Sequence record: MT446412.1
Direction: 5' to 3' (one strand)
Source: Escherichia virus TH41
Length of the DNA stretch: 64,000 nucleotides
Part shown: positions 2,510 through 59,656 of the stretch, piece after piece
How the letters are laid out: each line of letters opens with the position of its first letter
Numbering within the stretch: position 1 is the stretch's first letter
The notes under the pieces: generated by a model
Database searches by the model: none
Told to the model about the DNA's origin: nothing
Seen by the model: only the letters and a program-made list of their open reading frames with translations
Program-made: the position numbers and the translations under genes

Positions 2510-2782
2510 ATGAAAACTTTCAATGAATTTTTCAACGAGTCACAACTGAATGAAGAAGTAAAAATTAGTAAAGCAGTCAAATCTATGATTGACAATATCA
2601 ATCACCTGTATAGCATTGACTTGACTGACCATATAACAATTGGTAACAAACGCAACTTTTTCGCGTTTGACATTTCAGAACTTGACCAGAACCAAATTAA
2701 TAACATTGAGCGTTTTGCCAATGACAAGGGTCTCCGTCATGAGACAGCTGGTTATAAAAAATATGCAATTTATCTAAAATAG
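2510..2782 (+). CDS. capsid-targeted internal protein candidate
   Basis: N-terminus MKTFNEFFNE (CTS-like); RBS AAGG upstream. Confidence 0.5.
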   Translation: MKTFNEFFNESQLNEEVKISKAVKSMIDNINHLYSIDLTDHITIGNKRNFFAFDISELDQNQINNIERFANDKGLRHETAGYKKYAIYLK

Positions 2783-2790
2783 GATTTCAA

Positions 2791-3090
2791 ATGCAAACTT
2801 TTCATGAATTTTTGGTAGAAAACAATTACCTGGCAGAAGCAAAAACCTGGCCTCTGGGTCTTCAGAAGAAAAACACCTACAAATGGGTTGACTTCAAAGG
2901 TAAAGGCGACGCTGAAGACTTTGACCAGCTGCGTAAAAATGGTTATACCTTCCTTGACTCTAACTATAACAAAATTACCTCTTTTAGTCAGAAGTCAAGC
3001 ATTGCCTTCATTGAAACTGGTAAGAACTCTCCTAAAGATATCACTGACGACTTCACCGCTTATGGTGTAATTCGTGGTTCAAAAATGTAA
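2791..3090 (+). CDS. capsid-targeted internal protein candidate (paralog of 16952..17215)
   Basis: N-terminus MQTFHEFLVE; shares GDAEDF...RKNGY[TS]F...IAF..G with ORF 16952. Confidence 0.5.
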   Translation: MQTFHEFLVENNYLAEAKTWPLGLQKKNTYKWVDFKGKGDAEDFDQLRKNGYTFLDSNYNKITSFSQKSSIAFIETGKNSPKDITDDFTAYGVIRGSKM

Positions 3091-3145
3091 TGTACACGAT
3101 GGGATAGTTGCAGTATAATTATCCCATCAACTACTGGAGCTACTA

Positions 3146-3424
3146 ATGAAAACTTATCAAGAATTTATTAACGAATCAATTAGTCACCCGGATATGCTGG
3201 AAGACCTGAAAGGACATCTGATGGTTAAGGCCAAACCGGTTGATGGTGGCGCATTTGAGTTGTTTCTTGTTAAAGGCGAAAACGGTCCTGATAACAAGAA
3301 AGTTTCAGCAATGATGTTGACTAAAGGTTACAAAGTCAGTTCTTCCTGGAATGCTCCATTCACTTACGCGGTAAGCCCTCGTGAACTGAAAAAAGTTAAA
3401 GCTGGACAATATACAAAAATTTAG
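3146..3424 (+). CDS. capsid-targeted internal protein
   Basis: N-terminus MKTYQEFINE; preceded by promoter/stem-loop cassette and GGAG RBS. Confidence 0.65.
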   Translation: MKTYQEFINESISHPDMLEDLKGHLMVKAKPVDGGAFELFLVKGENGPDNKKVSAMMLTKGYKVSSSWNAPFTYAVSPRELKKVKAGQYTKI

Positions 3425-3478
3425 TGTACGTGATGGGATAACTGTAGTATGATTATCTCATCAACTACTGGAGACCAC

Positions 3479-3733
3479 ATGAAAACTTATCAAGAATTTA
3501 TTACTGAATCTGCAAATGCAAAAGTTGAGTTTGCTTATGTTGGTTCGCCGCGTGGCAGTTTTTCCAATGAGGAATTCCGTCGTTCACTGGACAATTTCAT
3601 GCAGTTAAGTGCTGAAGTATCGCATGATGGTCGTTATGACATCGTTACTATTAGCGGTTCTGAAGACCTTATCAAAAAGTGGCACAAGCAGAAAGATGTT
3701 GAGATGCGTTACTATCGTATCCCTAAAAAATAA
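3479..3733 (+). CDS. capsid-targeted internal protein
   Basis: N-terminus MKTYQEFITE; start chosen at RBS-supported ATG 3479 rather than upstream ATG 3449 that lies in the promoter. Confidence 0.65.
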   Translation: MKTYQEFITESANAKVEFAYVGSPRGSFSNEEFRRSLDNFMQLSAEVSHDGRYDIVTISGSEDLIKKWHKQKDVEMRYYRIPKK

Positions 3734-3790: not shown

Positions 3791-3976
3791 ATGAAACGTT
3801 GCGAATTAATTAGAAATGTTACTGCCCTTGTTGCTGTTACCACTTTTGGTTTTAGCATGTTTGCTGGCTTTATGTTGAATATGCTTTCAACTTCTGAGAA
3901 TATAATCTCTTTAGTAGTTGCATTTTTAATTGGTTCAATCTCTTTCGTTATGGATAAAATCTCTAAAGGTGAGTAA
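3791..3976 (+). CDS. small hydrophobic membrane protein
   Basis: 61 aa, two predicted TM stretches; GAGGAG RBS; start 3791. Confidence 0.5.
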   Translation: MKRCELIRNVTALVAVTTFGFSMFAGFMLNMLSTSENIISLVVAFLIGSISFVMDKISKGE

Positions 3977-5236: not shown

Positions 5237-5312
5237 GGCCCTGTAGCTCAATTGGTTAGAGCATCCGGCTCATAACTGGCAGGTTTCCGGTTCAAGTCCG
5301 GATGGGGCCACC
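5237..5312 (+). tRNA. tRNA with CAU anticodon (Met or lysidine-modified Ile)
   Basis: Cloverleaf by hand: acceptor GGCCCTG/TGGGGCC, D-arm GCTC..GAGC, anticodon loop CTCATAA, T-arm TCCGG-TTCAAGT-CCGGA; one mismatch in anticodon stem. Confidence 0.7.
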
Positions 5313-5389
5313 CGGGGTGTAGCTCAATTGTATAGAGCAACGGTCTTCTAAACCGTAGGTTGTGGGTTAGAATCCCACCACCCCGACCA
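5313..5389 (+). tRNA. tRNA-Arg (anticodon UCU)
   Basis: Acceptor CGGGGTG/CACCCCG, anticodon stem ACGGT/ACCGT, loop CTTCTAA, T-arm GTGGG-TTAGAAT-CCCAC, encoded CCA. Confidence 0.8.
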
Positions 5390-15588: not shown

Positions 15589-15614
15589 TAAATACCCCTA
15601 TATAAGGGGGTATT

Positions 15615-16103
15615 ATGAATATATTCGAAATGTTACGCATAGATGAAGGTTGTAAGTTGGATTTGTATAAAGATACAGAAGGCTTTTGGACCATCGGTAT
15701 CGGGCAACTGATAACTAAGAACCCATCGAAAGATGTAGCTCGCGCTGAGCTCGACAAGCTTATGGGTCGTGTTTGTAATGGTCGCATAACCCAGCACGAA
15801 GCTGAAACATTGTTTAATCGTTCGGTCGAAAAAGCTAAAGCCGGAATCTTGAGACACCCTGTCTTAAAACCTGTTTATGATGTACTGGATGAAGTTCGTC
15901 GTTGTGCGCTCATTAATATGGTATTCCAGATGGGTGTTGCTGGTGTTGCTGGTTTTCCTAAGGGTATGCGATTGTTGAAGGCTAAATCATGGGAAGCCGC
16001 CGCTAAGGAACTGGCCGACTCGAGATGGTATAAAGTCCAGACTCCGAACCGGGCTAAACGAGTTATCGAAACTTTCCGCACCGGAACTTTTGACGCATAT
16101 TAG
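15615..16103 (+). CDS. e: endolysin (T4 lysozyme e)
   Basis: [12 protein letters not shown]...[11 protein letters not shown] matches T4 lysozyme including catalytic Glu11/Asp20/Thr26 region. Confidence 0.95.
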
Positions 16104-16132
16104 TGTACATCTCCAAATGGTAGGGTTATAAT
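16104..16132 (+). promoter_or_regulatory. early promoter
   Basis: GTGTAC-17 nt-TATAAT, -10 flanked by inverted repeat TAGGG/CCCTA. Confidence 0.5.
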
Positions 16133-16158
16133 GGCCCTATCAACTACGGAGAACAAAC

Positions 16159-16575
16159 ATGACTCGCATTAATTTAACTCTGGTATCTGAACTTGCTGAC
16201 CAACATCTTATGGCTGAATATCGTGAGCTTCCTCGCGTGTTTGGTGCAGTTCGCAAACATATACAAAATGGTAAAAAGGTTTCTGACTTTAAAATTCCAT
16301 CATCTTTTCTTTTAGGAACTGGTCATGTCACCTTCTTTTATGATAAACTTTTGTTCCTTAAAAACCGTCATCAAGAACTTATTGCGGAATGTTTAAAGCG
16401 AGGGTTTAACATAAAAGATATTTCTACCCAAGATTTAAATGATATTCCTGATGAATGGAAGAATGATTATCAACCATCAATCTGGTCAATTGAAATCAGT
16501 CAAGCCAGACTGAATGAGAAAATTTCTCAAAAGCCTACCTGGTACAAATACTATGGGAAAGCTGTGTACGCTTAA
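16159..16575 (+). CDS. denV: endonuclease V (pyrimidine dimer DNA glycosylase, denV)
   Basis: [29 protein letters not shown]... near-identical to T4 denV. Confidence 0.95.
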
Positions 16576-16623
16576 CTAAAAAGGTTGTATAATGATTTTA
16601 TCAACCAAACAATGGAATATAAA

Positions 16624-16938
16624 ATGAAAACTTATCAAGAATTTATTACTGAATCTACCCAAAAACGTGTTGAAGGCGGTTATGTCTGGATTGAACAGTT
16701 AACCCCACCAAGTGAAACAAGCACAGGTTCATGGAAAATTACTGTTGATGGTCCTGGCGGCAAACGCAAGACTATTAAAGAAATTAAAGGCTATTATGAT
16801 GAAGCTAAATCATGGGCGGGTAGTCATGTAATGCAGATTAAAATTGCAAATCCGGATAACGTTCATGCAGCAAAAGCATTCCGTCGTATTGGTAATAAAC
16901 TTTATGATGCGTTTTTGCGCGATTTCCCTAAAGCTTAA
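16624..16938 (+). CDS. capsid-targeted internal protein (IPII/IPIII-locus member)
   Basis: MKTYQEFITE at RBS-consistent ATG 16624 (upstream in-frame ATGs lie in the promoter). Confidence 0.6.
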   Translation: MKTYQEFITESTQKRVEGGYVWIEQLTPPSETSTGSWKITVDGPGGKRKTIKEIKGYYDEAKSWAGSHVMQIKIANPDNVHAAKAFRRIGNKLYDAFLRDFPKA

Positions 16939-16951
16939 TTAAAGAGACATT

Positions 16952-17215
16952 ATGAAAACGTATCAAGAATTTATTACTGAATCTGCCAAAGCTCCTGCTG
17001 GTTCCTTTAAAGTCCGCGCCTTCGCTGGCGATGCTGAAGACTTTGGCACCATGAAGCGCAATGGTTATTCTTTCTTTGGTGGCGATGGTAAAGAAATTGT
17101 CACATATGCAAAACGTCGCGAAATCGCATTCGTGGTTGCTGGTAAGAAAGTTGATGCTGACGATATTGAATGGGACTTTGAGACCTTTGGTATTGTTTCT
17201 GGCGGTAAAGCATAA
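16952..17215 (+). CDS. capsid-targeted internal protein
   Basis: MKTYQEFITE; paralog of 2791..3090. Confidence 0.6.
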   Translation: MKTYQEFITESAKAPAGSFKVRAFAGDAEDFGTMKRNGYSFFGGDGKEIVTYAKRREIAFVVAGKKVDADDIEWDFETFGIVSGGKA

Positions 17216-17217
17216 CT

Positions 17218-17246
17218 GTTTACTTTATGATGGGATAGTGTATAAT
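17218..17246 (+). promoter_or_regulatory. early promoter with -10 inside stem-loop
   Basis: GTTTAC-17 nt-TATAAT; inverted repeat ATGGGATA/TATCCCAT brackets the -10; followed by GAGGAG RBS. Confidence 0.6.
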
Positions 17247-17274
17247 TATCCCATCAACTACTGAGGAGAATAAA

Positions 17275-17472
17275 ATGTTAACTTATAAAGAATTTATGAA
17301 AGAAGTTAAAAAACTTAAAAAGACTTCTGGCGATGTTAAAATTGAAATCCATGGTCAAAACGTAAATGTGGTAGCGGATGGCCAGGCATTAGTTCTTTAT
17401 AGTGATAAAGACCAAGAATTTCGTGAAGCACAAAAGAAAAAATTTACCGTATGGCTTAAAAAAGCTGTTTAA
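17275..17472 (+). CDS. small basic protein with CTS-like N-terminus
   Basis: MLTYKEFMKE...; 65 aa. Confidence 0.5.
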   Translation: MLTYKEFMKEVKKLKKTSGDVKIEIHGQNVNVVADGQALVLYSDKDQEFREAQKKKFTVWLKKAV

Positions 17473-17480
17473 GGACCAAT

Positions 17481-17780
17481 ATGAAAACGTATCAAGAATT
17501 TATCACAGAAGCCAAAGCTCCTAAAGCATTTCAAATCGGAGTCCAGGGCAATTTAGACCAACAATATGTTGATGCTATTGTCGCAAGCCTCGGTAAACAA
17601 GGTGTACAAGTGGATTTGGTTGATTTTACTAAAGGTAATACTTTTAATATTGTCGCATCTAAAGGTTCTTTAGCTAAAGTTAAAAAGGCCTTTGGCGTAG
17701 CACAAGCATATGAAATTGACCATTCTGAATTAGAAAATAAAGGTCGCCAGAACACAATTAAAGGCTCTGGTTCTTTTTAA
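17481..17780 (+). CDS. capsid-targeted internal protein
   Basis: MKTYQEFITEAKAP... Confidence 0.6.
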   Translation: MKTYQEFITEAKAPKAFQIGVQGNLDQQYVDAIVASLGKQGVQVDLVDFTKGNTFNIVASKGSLAKVKKAFGVAQAYEIDHSELENKGRQNTIKGSGSF

Positions 17781-17941
17781 TAAAGGCAAACCGACCCTCT
17801 CCTCATGAACTTCGTGTCCTCTGAGTGATGGACCTTTCCCTACCTGTAATAAGGTCGAGCCCGAGTGCGGTAAGGGGTTTACATTCGGATACATGGACGA
17901 ATTAATGTGCCAAGGAATGGCCCCACAACTAAGAGACAACT

Positions 17942-18469
17942 ATGAAATTTTTAACTCCCATTTATCTAACTTTAATGCACGCCTTCGCTGAACGCGCCAT
18001 TGAACGCTTAGATTCAGACCAATACACCTGGTATGAACCCGCTTCAAGAATGCAAGAGTTTGGTACCCTTAGACTTGACGGTGGAAGACAAACAGGTAAA
18101 ACAAGTGCCATTGCGCAGTTCGCGGCGGATTGGGTTTCTAAAGGTAATGATGTGATTGTTATGTCGAGTTCTTCGCATCGCTCACGAGAAATCTGTAATA
18201 TAATAAAGCGGGTGTCTAAGGCACAACCACATCTTAATGTTGAACGACCTGGATTCGTTGTCTATGATACTGTACGCAGTTTCCTTGATGAAGATAATTT
18301 TCATAAGTACCGTGGATTGCGTTTTACGCGTCTTTTAATCATTATTGAAGAACCTATTCGCCTCCCTGCAATGGATAAGTTCTATGAAGCTTATCAGGTA
18401 ATGATGAATAAATTTATGTGTCAAGGTGATAAGCCTTTGCCACTGTTCTTTGTGATAGGAATGCAATGA
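17942..18469 (+). CDS. small P-loop NTPase-like protein
   Basis: Walker A GGRQTGKTS and Walker B-like LLIIIEEP. Confidence 0.5.
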   Translation: MKFLTPIYLTLMHAFAERAIERLDSDQYTWYEPASRMQEFGTLRLDGGRQTGKTSAIAQFAADWVSKGNDVIVMSSSSHRSREICNIIKRVSKAQPHLNVERPGFVVYDTVRSFLDEDNFHKYRGLRFTRLLIIIEEPIRLPAMDKFYEAYQVMMNKFMCQGDKPLPLFFVIGMQ

Positions 18470-18765
18470 TGACCCATGAAGAGCTTTTTGACCAAATCTA
18501 TTTTATTCCAAAAGTTAGGTCTGAAGATTTCGTAAAGAATTTTGAAATCTTTAATAAAGCAAATTTCTTTGAGTATGTGTTTTTGTCTGGACCTTTTATT
18601 GGGTCCAGATTTCGTTGCACTGCTCCGAGTATTCGCTTGATGAAGTTGGTTCCTTACTTTACTCTGGAATTTATTTCTGGACCGTGTAAGGGTATTATCA
18701 CTCGTAGCCTCCTGACCTATGACCAGGATGTGCGATTAATTAGTGACTGGAAAAAATATGTCTAA
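18466..18765 (+). CDS. hypothetical protein
   Basis: 99 aa, ATGA overlap. Confidence 0.45.
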   Translation: MMTHEELFDQIYFIPKVRSEDFVKNFEIFNKANFFEYVFLSGPFIGSRFRCTAPSIRLMKLVPYFTLEFISGPCKGIITRSLLTYDQDVRLISDWKKYV

Positions 18766-58242: not shown

Positions 58243-58408
58243 GATTTCCGTATTCGAGATTTTTGAAGAATATGAAATCGTGTCGCAAGACCAAGAAGCA
58301 ATCCATGTTATCGCTGATGATGGTGTTACCTGGATTATTCCGTTGTATCATGAAGACACTTATGAAGTGACTGATGCAAATGGTGATAAAGCTGTCTTCG
58401 TTGTATAA
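58217..58408 (+). CDS. small acidic hypothetical protein
   Basis: 63 aa. Confidence 0.4.
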   Translation: MSAMCTGSKISVFEIFEEYEIVSQDQEAIHVIADDGVTWIIPLYHEDTYEVTDANGDKAVFVV

Positions 58409-58411
58409 ATA
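58404..58411 (+). promoter_or_regulatory. late promoter TATAAATA
   Basis: Exact TATAAATA 17 nt upstream of CTS-like ORF 58428. Confidence 0.45.
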
Positions 58412-58427
58412 GCGGAAAGGGGGTGTT

Positions 58428-58595
58428 ATGAAAACATTCAAAGATTTTATCAACGAAAATATGGTTGCCGGTGATGCAGGTGGAAATCCAACTAATATCG
58501 CAACAGGTACCACTTCCGGGGCAGTTGTCAATAAAGGCCCTGAACAAATCCCATCAAAAAAGCGTAAGAACAAAGACGATAAACCTACAGTATAA
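58428..58595 (+). CDS. small protein with CTS-like N-terminus
   Basis: MKTFKDFINE...; 55 aa, Gly/Thr-rich, basic C-terminus. Confidence 0.4.
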   Translation: MKTFKDFINENMVAGDAGGNPTNIATGTTSGAVVNKGPEQIPSKKRKNKDDKPTV

Positions 58596-58627: not shown

Positions 58628-59656
58628 ATGTCATATATTGATAAAGAATTTGCGGTTAGAGCTTTATCGTATCAACCACGTTATAGAGAAGTCACCGGGA
58701 GCACATTTAAAGCAAACTGTCGTTGCAAGGTTTGTGGGGACTCCCAGAAAGATTCACACAAGGCTCGATTCTGGGCGTATACTAATCCGGCTGATGGCGC
58801 GGTTTACGTGAAATGTTTTAACTGTGACTACTCCACGCATATAAGCAAATACATAAAAGAGTTTGAGCCGGATTTACACTGGGAATATATGGTTGAGAAG
58901 TATAAGGAGAATGCCTTTGGCAGACAACGTAATGAAGTTGCCGAAACTCCGAAAGAACCAGAAAAAACTCCGGTTATCGAAGAGCTTGCTTTTTGTGAAA
59001 GACTCGATACTTTACCAGAAGCGCATCCTATAATTAAGTATGTAAAAAGTCGGTGTATTCCTAGCAATGTTTGGAACCGGTTATGGTTTACAAACAAATG
59101 GCCTGCATTAGTTAACTCCGTTAATCCTGGGACGTATAAGAATGAAACGAATGAACCACGCTTGGTTATTCCTATCTTCAACGGCAAAAAAGAAATCGAA
59201 TCTTTCCAAGGACGAGCTCTTCGCAAAGATGCACCACAAAAATATATCACAATCAAAGCTCACCCAGAAGCTTCCAAAGTCTATGGTGTAGACAAGATTG
59301 ATGAGCGCAAGCGCGTGTGGGTAATGGAAGGTCCGATTGATAGTTTGTTTATCCCTAACAGCATTGCGATAACTGGTGGAACATTGTCATTGGAAGCCGT
59401 TCCTTATCCAGAAACCAGAGTATGGGTAATGGACAACGAACCAAGACATCCGGATACGATTAAACGTATGAAGAAGCTCGTTGAAGCTGGCGAAGCTGTT
59501 ATGTTCTGGGACAATGCACCATGGCATACGAAAGACATAAATGAGATGGTTAAATCAGAAGGAGCAACCCCTGAACAAATCGAATCATATATGGCTGATA
59601 ACGTTGCCCAAGGATTGATGGCGAGAATGCGACTTTCGAAGTACGCAAAAGTTTAG
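58628..59656 (+). CDS. 61: DNA primase gp61
   Basis: Zinc ribbon C.C.VCGDS..D..KAR.W.Y and C-terminal GPIDSLFI.N.IAITGG...VW..DNEPRHPDTIKRM.KLV.AGE.VMFWD match T4 gp61. Confidence 0.95.
   Translation: MSYIDKEFAVRALSYQPRYREVTGSTFKANCRCKVCGDSQKDSHKARFWAYTNPADGAVYVKCFNCDYSTHISKYIKEFEPDLHWEYMVEKYKENAFGRQRNEVAETPKEPEKTPVIEELAFCERLDTLPEAHPIIKYVKSRCIPSNVWNRLWFTNKWPALVNSVNPGTYKNETNEPRLVIPIFNGKKEIESFQGRALRKDAPQKYITIKAHPEASKVYGVDKIDERKRVWVMEGPIDSLFIPNSIAITGGTLSLEAVPYPETRVWVMDNEPRHPDTIKRMKKLVEAGEAVMFWDNAPWHTKDINEMVKSEGATPEQIESYMADNVAQGLMARMRLSKYAKV

Follow-up and report, generated by a model that had tools for sequence, protein, structure and literature searches.

The window, a 64-kb stretch of phage DNA, belongs to a T4-like phage of the Gaprivervirus group with about 95% nucleotide identity to VR7 and SP18. 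The region described here follows the gene order nudE-e-denV-[internal-protein (IP) genes]-vs.8 and is syntenic with the corresponding regions of VR7, SP18 and T4. Between denV and vs.8 there are four small genes (Table 1), referred to as locus 2, whose mature products are predicted at 6-10.5 kDa. In VR7 and SP18 the same stretch from denV to vs.8 carries genes annotated as ip10, internal head protein and ip7. The counterpart of ORF 16624 is annotated as ip10 in VR7, SP18 and VR20, that of ORF 16952 as "internal head protein" in VR7 and SP18, and that of ORF 17481 as ip7 in VR7, VR20 and VR26. The initial annotation placed the start of the locus at 16585, a spurious TTG start (the true gene starts at 16624), and listed three genes, missing the fourth, ORF17275. 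The first IP locus is the source of two further exact copies of the N-terminal repeat described below (capsid targeting sequence, CTS) and of a paralog of ORF 16952. The slot between e and denV (e|denV) is empty in the window.

Table 1 Features of the denV-vs.8 region and of the first IP locus (window coordinates)
Feature	Position	Strand	Basis or remark
Stem-loop early-promoter cassette 5' of denV	16104-16158		promoter match and fold
denV (endonuclease V), conserved left flank	16159..16575	+	ORF; syntenic denV annotation in VR7, SP18
Putative promoter of early type (GTGTAC-N18-TATAAT) with 5'UTR, first IP gene	16564..16623	+	function predicted from sequence
ip10-like internal head protein gene, 104 aa; CTS 16624-16653	16624..16938	+	phrog_3966, 2.6e-32
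RB69-ORF125c-like internal head protein gene, 87 aa; CTS 16952-16981	16952..17215	+	phrog_2667, 9e-21
PeSL-like early promoter	17219..17274	+	promoter scan 10/12; DNA fold
ORFan with CTS-like N-terminus MLTYKEFMKE, 65 aa (ORF17275)	17275..17472	+	candidate additional internal protein
ip7 internal head protein gene, 99 aa; CTS 17481-17510	17481..17780	+	phrog_2667, 1.8e-42
Candidate structured RNA, core 17782-17880	17781..17941	+	3' of the last IP gene and 5' of vs.8; bounds the variable locus on the right
First IP locus: four genes with a CTS or CTS-like N-terminus (2510-2782, 2791-3090, 3146-3424, 3479-3733)	2510..3733	+	

As noted in the initial annotation, ORFs 16624, 16952 and 17481 all begin with MKTYQEFITE. 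The 30-nt pattern ATGAAAACNTATCAAGAATTTATNACNGAA occurs in exactly five copies in the 64 kb (at 3146, 3479, 16624, 16952 and 17481) and in none of 100 shuffles. The earlier description of near-identity over the first ~33 nt followed by abrupt divergence was borne out, as pairwise identity of the five copies is 87-100% over positions +1..+30 and falls to 50-62% over +31..+90, the level of random 60-mers (57.5 ± 3.9). Alignment placed the breakpoints at the ends of the CTS, with identity at background on either side; the repeat is 30-33 nt long and spans 10-11 codons, rather than the RBS and the first two or three codons only. The exception to the divergence behind the CTS is a further GCCAAAGCTCCT (AKAP) shared by ORFs 16952 and 17481 with an offset of one Ser codon. 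Positions 4 and 7 of the CTS have been reported to be needed for targeting, and position 8 and Glu10 for gp21 processing (PMC9026906); Y4, F7, I8 and E10 are all present in the three canonical genes of locus 2. A CTS-like ORF is also found at 58428, outside both IP loci.

Homology of the payloads, i.e. the parts encoded behind the CTS, places ip7 and ORF 16952 (via phrog_2667) and ORF 16624 (via phrog_3966) among the internal proteins. The proposed paralogy of ORF 16952 with ORF 2791 of the first locus was confirmed by a full-length match (33% identity, E=1e-16). No relation of payloads was detectable for two other pairs, since BLASTP aligned ORFs 16952 and 17481 only over the CTS (and AKAP) and ORFs 16624 and 3146 only over the CTS. 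A Pfam search with all nine CTS-like ORFs gave sub-threshold noise only, and a PDB sequence search with ip7 returned one weak sub-threshold match to a flagellin motif (E=5.7e-4) with no passing stretch.

The regions upstream of the CTS copies are far less alike. The promoter and UTR of the locus-2 genes had been described as nearly identical to those at 3146 and 3479; over -60..-1 they share only 55-63% identity, which is background, and the sole shared upstream region among the CTS copies is that of 3146 and 3479 (80%). ORF 16624 has its own putative early promoter and a different UTR, without the stem-loop and without the ATCAACTAC UTR. ORF 16952 begins 13 nt and ORF 17481 8 nt past the preceding stop codon; neither has a promoter, and both would be read as downstream cistrons, transcription presumably starting from the two T4-type early promoters, one 5' of ip10 and the other in the stem-loop cassette 5' of ORF17275. 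Within locus 2 the latter cassette accompanies ORF17275 only. It comprises a -35 motif TTTACT (17219-17224), a -10 motif TATAAT (17241-17246) enclosed in a stem-loop (17228-17256; stem of 11-12 bp), the UTR ATCAACTAC and the RBS GAGGAG, and its DNA fold has a free energy of -8.6 kcal/mol (z=-3.5). Dispersed copies number seven for the cassette (≤3 mismatches) and 11 for its UTR core, and most of them precede non-CTS genes. The stem-loop promoter is a separate genome-wide module and not part of the CTS cassette.

The N-terminus of ORF17275 matches the CTS at 6 of 10 residues and keeps Y4, F7 and E10; since position 8 is occupied by Met instead of Ile/Leu, its processing by gp21 is uncertain. 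The gene is absent from VR7 and SP18, is carried only by TH44 among 50,697 phage records, falls into only two clusters in 5.8e9 proteins and gave no match to PHROG or Pfam. Its sole homolog is located in the other slot (e|denV), where a canonical CTS is stacked ahead of the degenerate one, a position that we count in support of payload mobility; pN/pS between ORF17275 and this homolog is 0.23. We regard ORF17275 as a rare new candidate internal protein.

Comparison with related phages revealed different payloads behind one and the same promoter-UTR-CTS. The segment 16564-16653 of the window, 100% identical in the relatives, is followed by the ip10 payload in the window phage, SP18, VR20 and CJ20, by the 125c-like payload in phages P896, TH44 and 212, and by the ip7 payload in MN01 and P8, the switch point being the end of the CTS. 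Chimeric CTSs were found as well: in VR26 the CTS, the extra Ser and AK of the 125c gene are joined to ip7, giving a protein of 100 aa instead of 99, and ip7 of VR7 begins with ATGTTAACTTAT, the start of ORF17275, and continues as ip7. At locus 2 the events directly visible are deletions or fusions from one tandem CTS repeat to another, and their direction (deletion or insertion) is not readable from the comparisons; true payload replacement was seen only in the e|denV slot, whose contents differ between close relatives. The proposal of cassette exchange inside the CTS is therefore upheld as far as recombination in the CTS is concerned, and revised as to the unit, which is the CTS alone and not a promoter-RBS-CTS block.

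These comparisons support the reading of locus 2 as an IP locus whose genes would be shuffled when recombination takes place within the stretch that encodes the CTS. We consider it very probable that 16624-17780 represents the denV-proximal one of two hypervariable IP loci, encoding four small proteins, and that its variants are generated by recombination between CTS repeats. By homology with IPI-III of T4, the first ten residues would dock the protein on the scaffolding core of the prohead, the prohead protease gp21 would cut the CTS off after Glu10 at the I-x-E motif, and the mature proteins would be injected with the DNA. A counter-defence role of the payloads is suggested by analogy, because IPI* of T4 blocks a host nuclease. 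As the 30-45 nt coding for the CTS are near-identical in every IP gene, they form tandem direct repeats 0.3-0.9 kb apart, and homologous recombination between them, whether in a single genome or between relatives infecting the same cell, would delete, fuse or add payloads in frame. A short coding repeat doubling as a packaging signal may thus let phages swap injected, probably anti-defence, proteins without loss of the reading frame.

Shuffling could instead be driven mainly by the promoter/stem-loop cassettes, in the manner of PeSLs (promoter-early stem-loop cassettes) and possibly through excised mini-circles as proposed for RB49/phi1, with the CTS as a passenger. Arbiol et al. (PMC2839356) have ascribed the plasticity of IP loci to such elements, and in the window phage the cassette precedes ORF17275, the one gene present or absent among close relatives, adjoining the left side of this indel; it also stands 5' of ip7 in SP18 and 5' of denV, where the variable e|denV slot ends on its right side. 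However, four of the five junction types (delta-ip10, delta-ip10+125c, delta-125c and delta-17275) lie in the CTS with no cassette at the junction, and ORFs 16952 and 17481 are devoid of any cassette, which makes a leading role of the stem-loops improbable.

Recombination in the CTS has also to be weighed against purifying selection acting alone on ancient paralogs, which would conserve the peptide, the preferred codons and an AT-rich translation start with no role for recombination. All two-fold codons of the CTS are indeed the genome-preferred ones, and all genes show this preference more strongly over their first 10 codons, so that part of the synonymous-site conservation could result from selection on the translation-initiation region and not from homogenisation. 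The same two-fold codons are used in T4, a phage of another genus, in which ipII and ipIII have an identical 32-nt CTS (MKTYQEFIAE), and the diverged pair 16952/2791 demonstrates that duplication followed by divergence does occur. Nevertheless, codons for the same amino acid are identical in 73 of 86 pairs among the CTSs as compared with 44.8 expected from codon usage, which exceeds codon bias; one promoter-UTR-CTS precedes three payloads with the switch at the CTS end; and the chimeric CTSs (the extra Ser of VR26, Leu2 of VR7) are products of recombination, not a pattern of point mutations. Selection as the only force is accordingly judged very unlikely. It is hardly credible that the CTS-like ORFs are not packaged and that their N-terminus acts, e.g., as a common translational enhancer or regulatory peptide: the presence of the products in the virion is predicted, the exact late-promoter motif TATAAATA is absent from locus 2 and a CTS-like ORF lies outside the IP loci, but the N-terminus matches almost exactly the experimentally defined T4 CTS, targeting and cleavage residues included, the products are homologous to named IPs of T2 and RB69-type phages, and the locus is syntenic with ipII/ipIII of T4.

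The phenomenon at locus 2 is already known: Repoila 1994 (EMBO J 13:4181), cited here through Arbiol 2010 and Rao & Black 2010, described it, and it agrees with the published view that T-even phages have two polymorphic IP loci. Over 30 IP variants, two highly variable loci and promoter/stem-loop elements associated with them have been reported (PMC2839356), and only the CTS is conserved in the diverse IP set, in which IPI* is an anti-restriction protein (PMC3012670). The closest system is that of T4 IPI, IPII and IPIII and the two T-even IP loci (Repoila et al. 1994; Mullaney & Black 1996; Comeau et al. 2007), where small unrelated payloads also stand behind a conserved leader and the content varies among close relatives. 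T4 and the window phage share the 10-residue CTS (MKTYQEFIAE versus MKTYQEFITE), the codons at all its two-fold sites and the nudE-e-denV-vs.8 neighbourhood; they differ in that the IP genes lie between e and denV in T4 (ipIII, ipII) and between denV and vs.8 here, and in that the payloads here are ip10, ORF125c-like, ip7 and an ORFan, not IPII/IPIII. The comparison adds unusually clean natural CTS-to-CTS recombinants and no new principle.

The PeSLs (Arbiol et al. 2010, PMC2839356; Comeau et al. 2014, PMC4122927) resemble the stem-loop cassette in combining an early promoter with a stem-loop and in being repeated many times, mostly before small variable ORFs, and one cassette of the window flanks a gene present or absent between relatives. 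Homology of the two elements was not found: the PeSLs of RB49/phi1 have a near-consensus sigma-70 promoter and a GC-rich stem, whereas the window cassette has a promoter of the T4 early type (-35 GTGTAC/GTTTAC), an AT-rich stem that encloses the -10 motif, and a conserved ATCAACTAC UTR and RBS behind it; moreover, most junctions of locus 2 fall in the CTS and not in the stem-loop. Arbiol et al. (PMC2839356) likewise regarded the elements associated with T-even IP genes as analogous to PeSLs rather than homologous. The gene-cassette arrays of integrons offer an analogy only. They too consist of small unrelated adaptive genes, each starting at a short conserved repeat at which gain and loss occur, but neither integrase nor attC sites are present here, the repeat is part of the coding sequence, where it also serves to target the protein, and general homologous recombination of the phage would serve, no recombinase gene being annotated in the flanks (VR7, SP18). 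Propeptide-targeted ejection proteins of giant phages such as SPN3US (PMC5694885) are likewise head-internal, processed at their termini by the prohead protease and delivered to the host; their propeptides are not known to be a short shared nucleotide-level repeat, nor their genes to form a recombining tandem array.

The 161-nt "gap" 17781-17941 at the right edge of the locus is conserved across Tevenvirinae with covariation support and constitutes a candidate RNA, which the annotation of T4 covers as the N-terminus of Vs.8. Tentatively, and with rather more doubt than confidence, we propose that it is not a spacer but an undescribed structured RNA, which most Tevenvirinae would carry in a single copy, invariably 3' of the last IP gene or of denV and as a rule immediately 5' of vs.8; the current T4 annotation assigns this stretch to the first 40-odd residues of Vs.8. 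Two covarying helices would surround an invariant three-way-junction core of ~40 nt (ACCUGUAAUAAGGU-CGAGCNNNRGYGCG-GUAA), an architecture that would suggest a ligand- or protein-binding or a catalytic RNA with the early IP/vs transcript as its target. The single-sequence fold of 17781-17941 was no better than those of shuffles (z=+0.57), automatic consensus folds of wider alignments lost helix 1 through misalignment, and the 3' half (17881-17941) had no convincing covarying structure. Rfam gave no hit at 17781-17941 at the gathering threshold and no credible match over 17700-18000 at E≤10, and no tRNA or tmRNA was found at 17781-17941; the only finds of the Rfam and tRNA scans of the window were tRNA-Met and tRNA-Arg at 5237-5389. 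Fifteen exact 17-mer matches in bacteria were dismissed as chance, about 69 being expected in 596 Gb and all scoring ≤19 bits with the model. Cores of hammerhead, twister and pistol ribozymes were considered and rejected, as their conserved junction motifs are absent and Rfam gave no match. Literature on vs.8/denV or on T4 structured RNAs yielded nothing relevant. If functional, the RNA would give the best-studied family of phages a new regulatory or processing element and would correct the vs.8 annotation of T4; together with ORF17275, this conserved unannotated structure at the edge of the locus may prove weightier than the main finding.

The segment between denV and vs.8 (locus 2) belongs to an already annotated internal head protein (IP) locus, since the syntenic genes of its closest relatives are annotated as IPs. 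Window positions 15600-18500 matched 152 T4-like genomes when compared by megablast with 50,697 phage records, the closest (~95% identity) being Shigella phage SP18 and Escherichia phage VR7 (Tevenvirinae, Gaprivervirus), in which the order nudE, e, denV, ip10, 'internal head protein' (RB69 ORF125c-like), ip7 and vs.8 is annotated. Assignment to internal head/virion proteins is backed by PHROG profiles for ip7, the 125c-like protein and the proteins of locus 1 (2510-3733); a Pfam search of the CTS-like ORFs gave no match. Less 10 residues, the locus-2 proteins are of 6.3-10.5 kDa, and three of the four are basic. The genes at 16624, 16952 and 17481 listed in the initial annotation are all present; ORF17275 had been left off that list.

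Features of the internal protein loci and related elements (window coordinates)
Feature	Position	Remarks
Promoter cassette (...TATAAT...ATCAACTAC-TGAGGAG-ATG)	3126, 3460, 3769, 16139, 17253, 23714, 37705, 55278, 55981, 56901, 63702	+ strand
30-nt CTS pattern	3146, 3479, 16624, 16952, 17481	
Further CTS-like N-termini	2510, 2791, 17275, 58428	looser scan of the window
e|denV slot	16104-16158	promoter cassette only, no IP gene
denV	16159-16575	
Early-type promoter GTGTAC-N18-TATAAT		overlaps denV stop codon
ip10-like gene	16624-16938	
125c-like gene	16952-17215	starts 13 nt beyond ip10-like gene
Stem-loop early-promoter cassette	17219-17274	
ORF17275	17275-17472	65 aa, N-terminus MLTYKEFMKE
ip7	17481-17780	starts 8 nt beyond ORF17275
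Candidate RNA element	17781-17941	161-nt gap; core 17782-17880
vs.8	begins 17942	
Exact late-promoter motif TATAAATA	2493-2500, 58404-58411	
DNA primase gene	58628-59656	

The 30-nt pattern of the capsid targeting sequence (CTS; MKTYQEFITE) occurs exactly five times in the window and in none of 100 shuffles. Pairwise identity of the five copies is 87-100% over +1..+30 and 50-62% over +31..+90; over -60..-1 it is 55-63% between locus 2 and locus 1 and 80% between 3146 and 3479, with a background of 57.5 +/- 3.9% for random 60-mers from the window. On these figures the CTS repeat is real and sharply bounded, with promoter and UTR outside it. The near-identical coding starts and the abrupt divergence behind them were thus described correctly in the initial annotation; the near identity also claimed there for the upstream promoter/UTR with the copies at 3146 and 3479 is contradicted. 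Pairwise alignment of the five copies placed the breakpoints at the ATG and at nt 30-35, or nt 45 for the pair 16952/17481, which additionally has GCCAAAGCTCCT in common, shifted by one Ser codon. The proposed paralogy of ORF 16952 and ORF 2791 holds (33% identity, E=1e-16), and alignment of the other payloads is confined to the CTS.

Of the 86 same-amino-acid codon pairs formed by the five CTS copies, 73 are identical, with 44.8 expected from the window's own codon usage, and the preferred two-fold codon is used at 6/6 sites in 5/5 copies (p=1.6e-5 if the copies were independent, which they are not). Given this non-independence, and because codons near the start lean the same way in every gene, the codon identity fits homogenisation as well as selection. 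In T4, ipII and ipIII have an identical 32-nt CTS, with codon choices as in the window.

The promoter cassette is a module separate from the CTS. Seven copies of the motif TATCCCATCAACTACTGGAG are found in the window at <=3 mismatches and 11 of its core ATCAACTAC, on the + strand only, where ~0.5 copies of the cassette would be expected by chance. CTS-type genes follow just three of them (3146, 3479 and 17275); the remaining cassettes head denV, the gene for a small membrane protein and further unrelated ORFs, mostly small and non-CTS, and the cassette of ORF17275 is nearly identical to that of the non-CTS ORF at 3791. Every copy is a T4-early-type promoter with its -10 box within an 11-12 bp stem. 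The window cassettes correspond to the 'PeSL-like' (promoter early stem-loop) elements which, according to Arbiol et al. (PMC2839356), were seen by Repoila et al. at both IP loci of T-even phages.

The locus was compared in ten relatives by listing all CTS ORFs and aligning the junctions base by base. SP18, VR20 and CJ20 carry the same full set as the window (ip10, 125c-like, ip7). In P896, TH44 and 212, which are without ip10, the stretch running from the denV stop to the end of the ip10 CTS, promoter and UTR included, equals that of the window at 90/90 nt (one substitution in TH44) and leads into the 125c-like payload. The identical 90 nt lead into ip7 in MN01 and P8, which have neither ip10 nor the 125c-like gene, and in whose ip7 CTS the ip10-type ATTACT replaces ATCACA. 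VR26 has a single 100-aa gene (MKTYQEFITES-AKVPKAFQ...) in which a 125c-type CTS plus Ser is fused to ip7, and in VR7, where ORF17275 is absent, ip7 starts with the first four ORF17275 codons (ATGTTAACTTAT), followed by ip7-like CAAGAATTTATCACAGAA. The prediction of different payloads behind the same cassette is borne out by these genomes, as is that of recombination within the CTS-coding segment, all junctions being within the CTS or at its end. Like the repeat structure and its boundaries, these recombinant arrangements are directly observed; they are the products expected from homologous recombination between tandem CTS repeats, and could be read in either direction, as loss or as gain. In VR7 (L001), a ~28-nt deletion at 3117-3150 takes out the UTR and RBS together with the 3′ half of the stem-loop and leaves the ip7 start codon overlapping the -10 box (GTATAATGTTAAC), so that translation of ip7 would need to be leaderless, without an RBS.

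Genuine replacement of one payload by another is seen next to the locus, in the e|denV slot, the interval between the lysozyme gene e and denV. Relatives (loci L003, L004, L006 and L008-L012) carry at least four unrelated IP genes there: ip5 in VR20, an IPII-like gene in P896, MN01 and CJ20, another IP in TH44 and 212, and an ORF17275 homolog in metagenomic contigs. The IP start codon in L012 overlaps the last lysozyme codons (GCATATGAAAAC...), and the IP gene called in L011 likewise begins ahead of the lysozyme stop.

ORF17275 is genuine as a gene (pN/pS 0.23 over 56 codons relative to a 73%-identical homolog) and has its own promoter and a strong RBS. It is exceedingly rare: nucleotide and tblastn searches found it in TH44 only among phage records, and two clusters only were matched among 5.8 billion proteins; it is an ORFan and a candidate internal protein. 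Its only homolog, P0002 (78 aa; L011 2926-3162), belongs to a different T4-like phage, where it occupies the e|denV slot. P0002 starts with a canonical CTS, MKTYNEFITE; in the segment that comes next, AESITNSYFNKE, the final ten residues align with MLTYKEFMKE of ORF17275. This alignment suggests that the payload changed slots, gaining a fresh CTS ahead of a decayed one.

The main interpretation, cassette exchange by recombination in the CTS, is correct and its promoter part inaccurate; recombination between conserved 5′ motifs was reportedly already proposed by Repoila et al. in 1994. Two highly polymorphic IP loci with >30 IP variants and associated promoter/stem-loop elements have been published (PMC2839356), as have the conserved leader and the view of the CTS as an evolutionary device by which varied proteins are loaded into the head (PMC9026906, PMC3012670, PMC2839356), and the finding is therefore already known. 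IPs of T4 are injected along with the DNA. The T4 CTS directs the protein to the scaffolding core; targeting requires positions 4 and 7, and gp21 protease cleavage positions 8 and 10 (PMC9026906). IPI*, at least, counters restriction, and the whole IP set is regarded as a diverse anti-defence arsenal in which the CTS alone is conserved (PMC3012670). By analogy, core targeting, gp21 cleavage and injection would extend to the IPs of the window.

The gap between ip7 and vs.8 is a candidate new structured RNA motif. It is GC-rich, nearly invariant across Gapriverviruses and has stops in all three forward frames in the window; sensitive blastn located it in 964 phage records spanning many T4-like genera of Tevenvirinae, where it almost always lacks annotation. 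Matches to bacterial genomes were rejected as chance matches, and Rfam gave no match. Structure was tested on an alignment (A7) of 26 distinct sequences from eight genera and metagenomic viral contigs. Two covarying helices surround an invariant three-way-junction core: helix 1 (AAAGG/CCUUU, AAAGC/GCUUU, AAAGA/UCUUU, GGGAA/UUCCC, GGGAG/CUCCC, GGAAC/GUUCC) and helix 2 (CCCU/GGGG, UCCA/UGGG, UGGU/A(G)CCA), the latter enclosing the invariant hairpins ACCU-GUAAUA-AGGU and CGAGC-NNNR-GYGCG, with GUAA at the junction. Paired cells amount to 95.3%, a value reached by 0/500 shuffles (84.7 +/- 0.9%), and slid controls gave 20-56%; both sides change in eight pairs (53 cells), and G:U pairs assign the structure to the + (mRNA) strand. 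No structure was found in the 3′ half of the element. The covariance model detected one copy in the window (116.9 bits) and one per related genome, with the exception of Edwardsiella phage PEi20, where two tandem copies (1052-1261 of L017; 96.9 and 39.4 bits) lie upstream of vs.8. The element is always located behind the last IP gene or denV, and usually directly before vs.8; in Jiaodaviruses it precedes a further IP gene.

In T4 (NC_000866; L014 2820-2913, minus strand) the N-terminal ~44 residues of annotated Vs.8 coincide with the element. The core shares 82% identity with the T4 sequence, within the annotated vs.8 5′ end, in an alignment that has indels of 2, 2 and 1 nt, and the window Vs.8 start aligns to an internal Met of T4 Vs.8 (MRTFLTG...); given these non-3n indels and the internal Met, the annotated T4 start is probably over-extended.

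The exact late-promoter motif was absent from locus 2 (16500-17800 scanned). In locus 1 it is found just ahead of the CTS-like gene that opens the locus (2510). It also precedes the CTS-like ORF at 58428 (55 aa, within 58404-58595; N-terminus MKTFKDFINE, phrog_1823), which lies outside both IP loci, directly upstream of the DNA primase gene.
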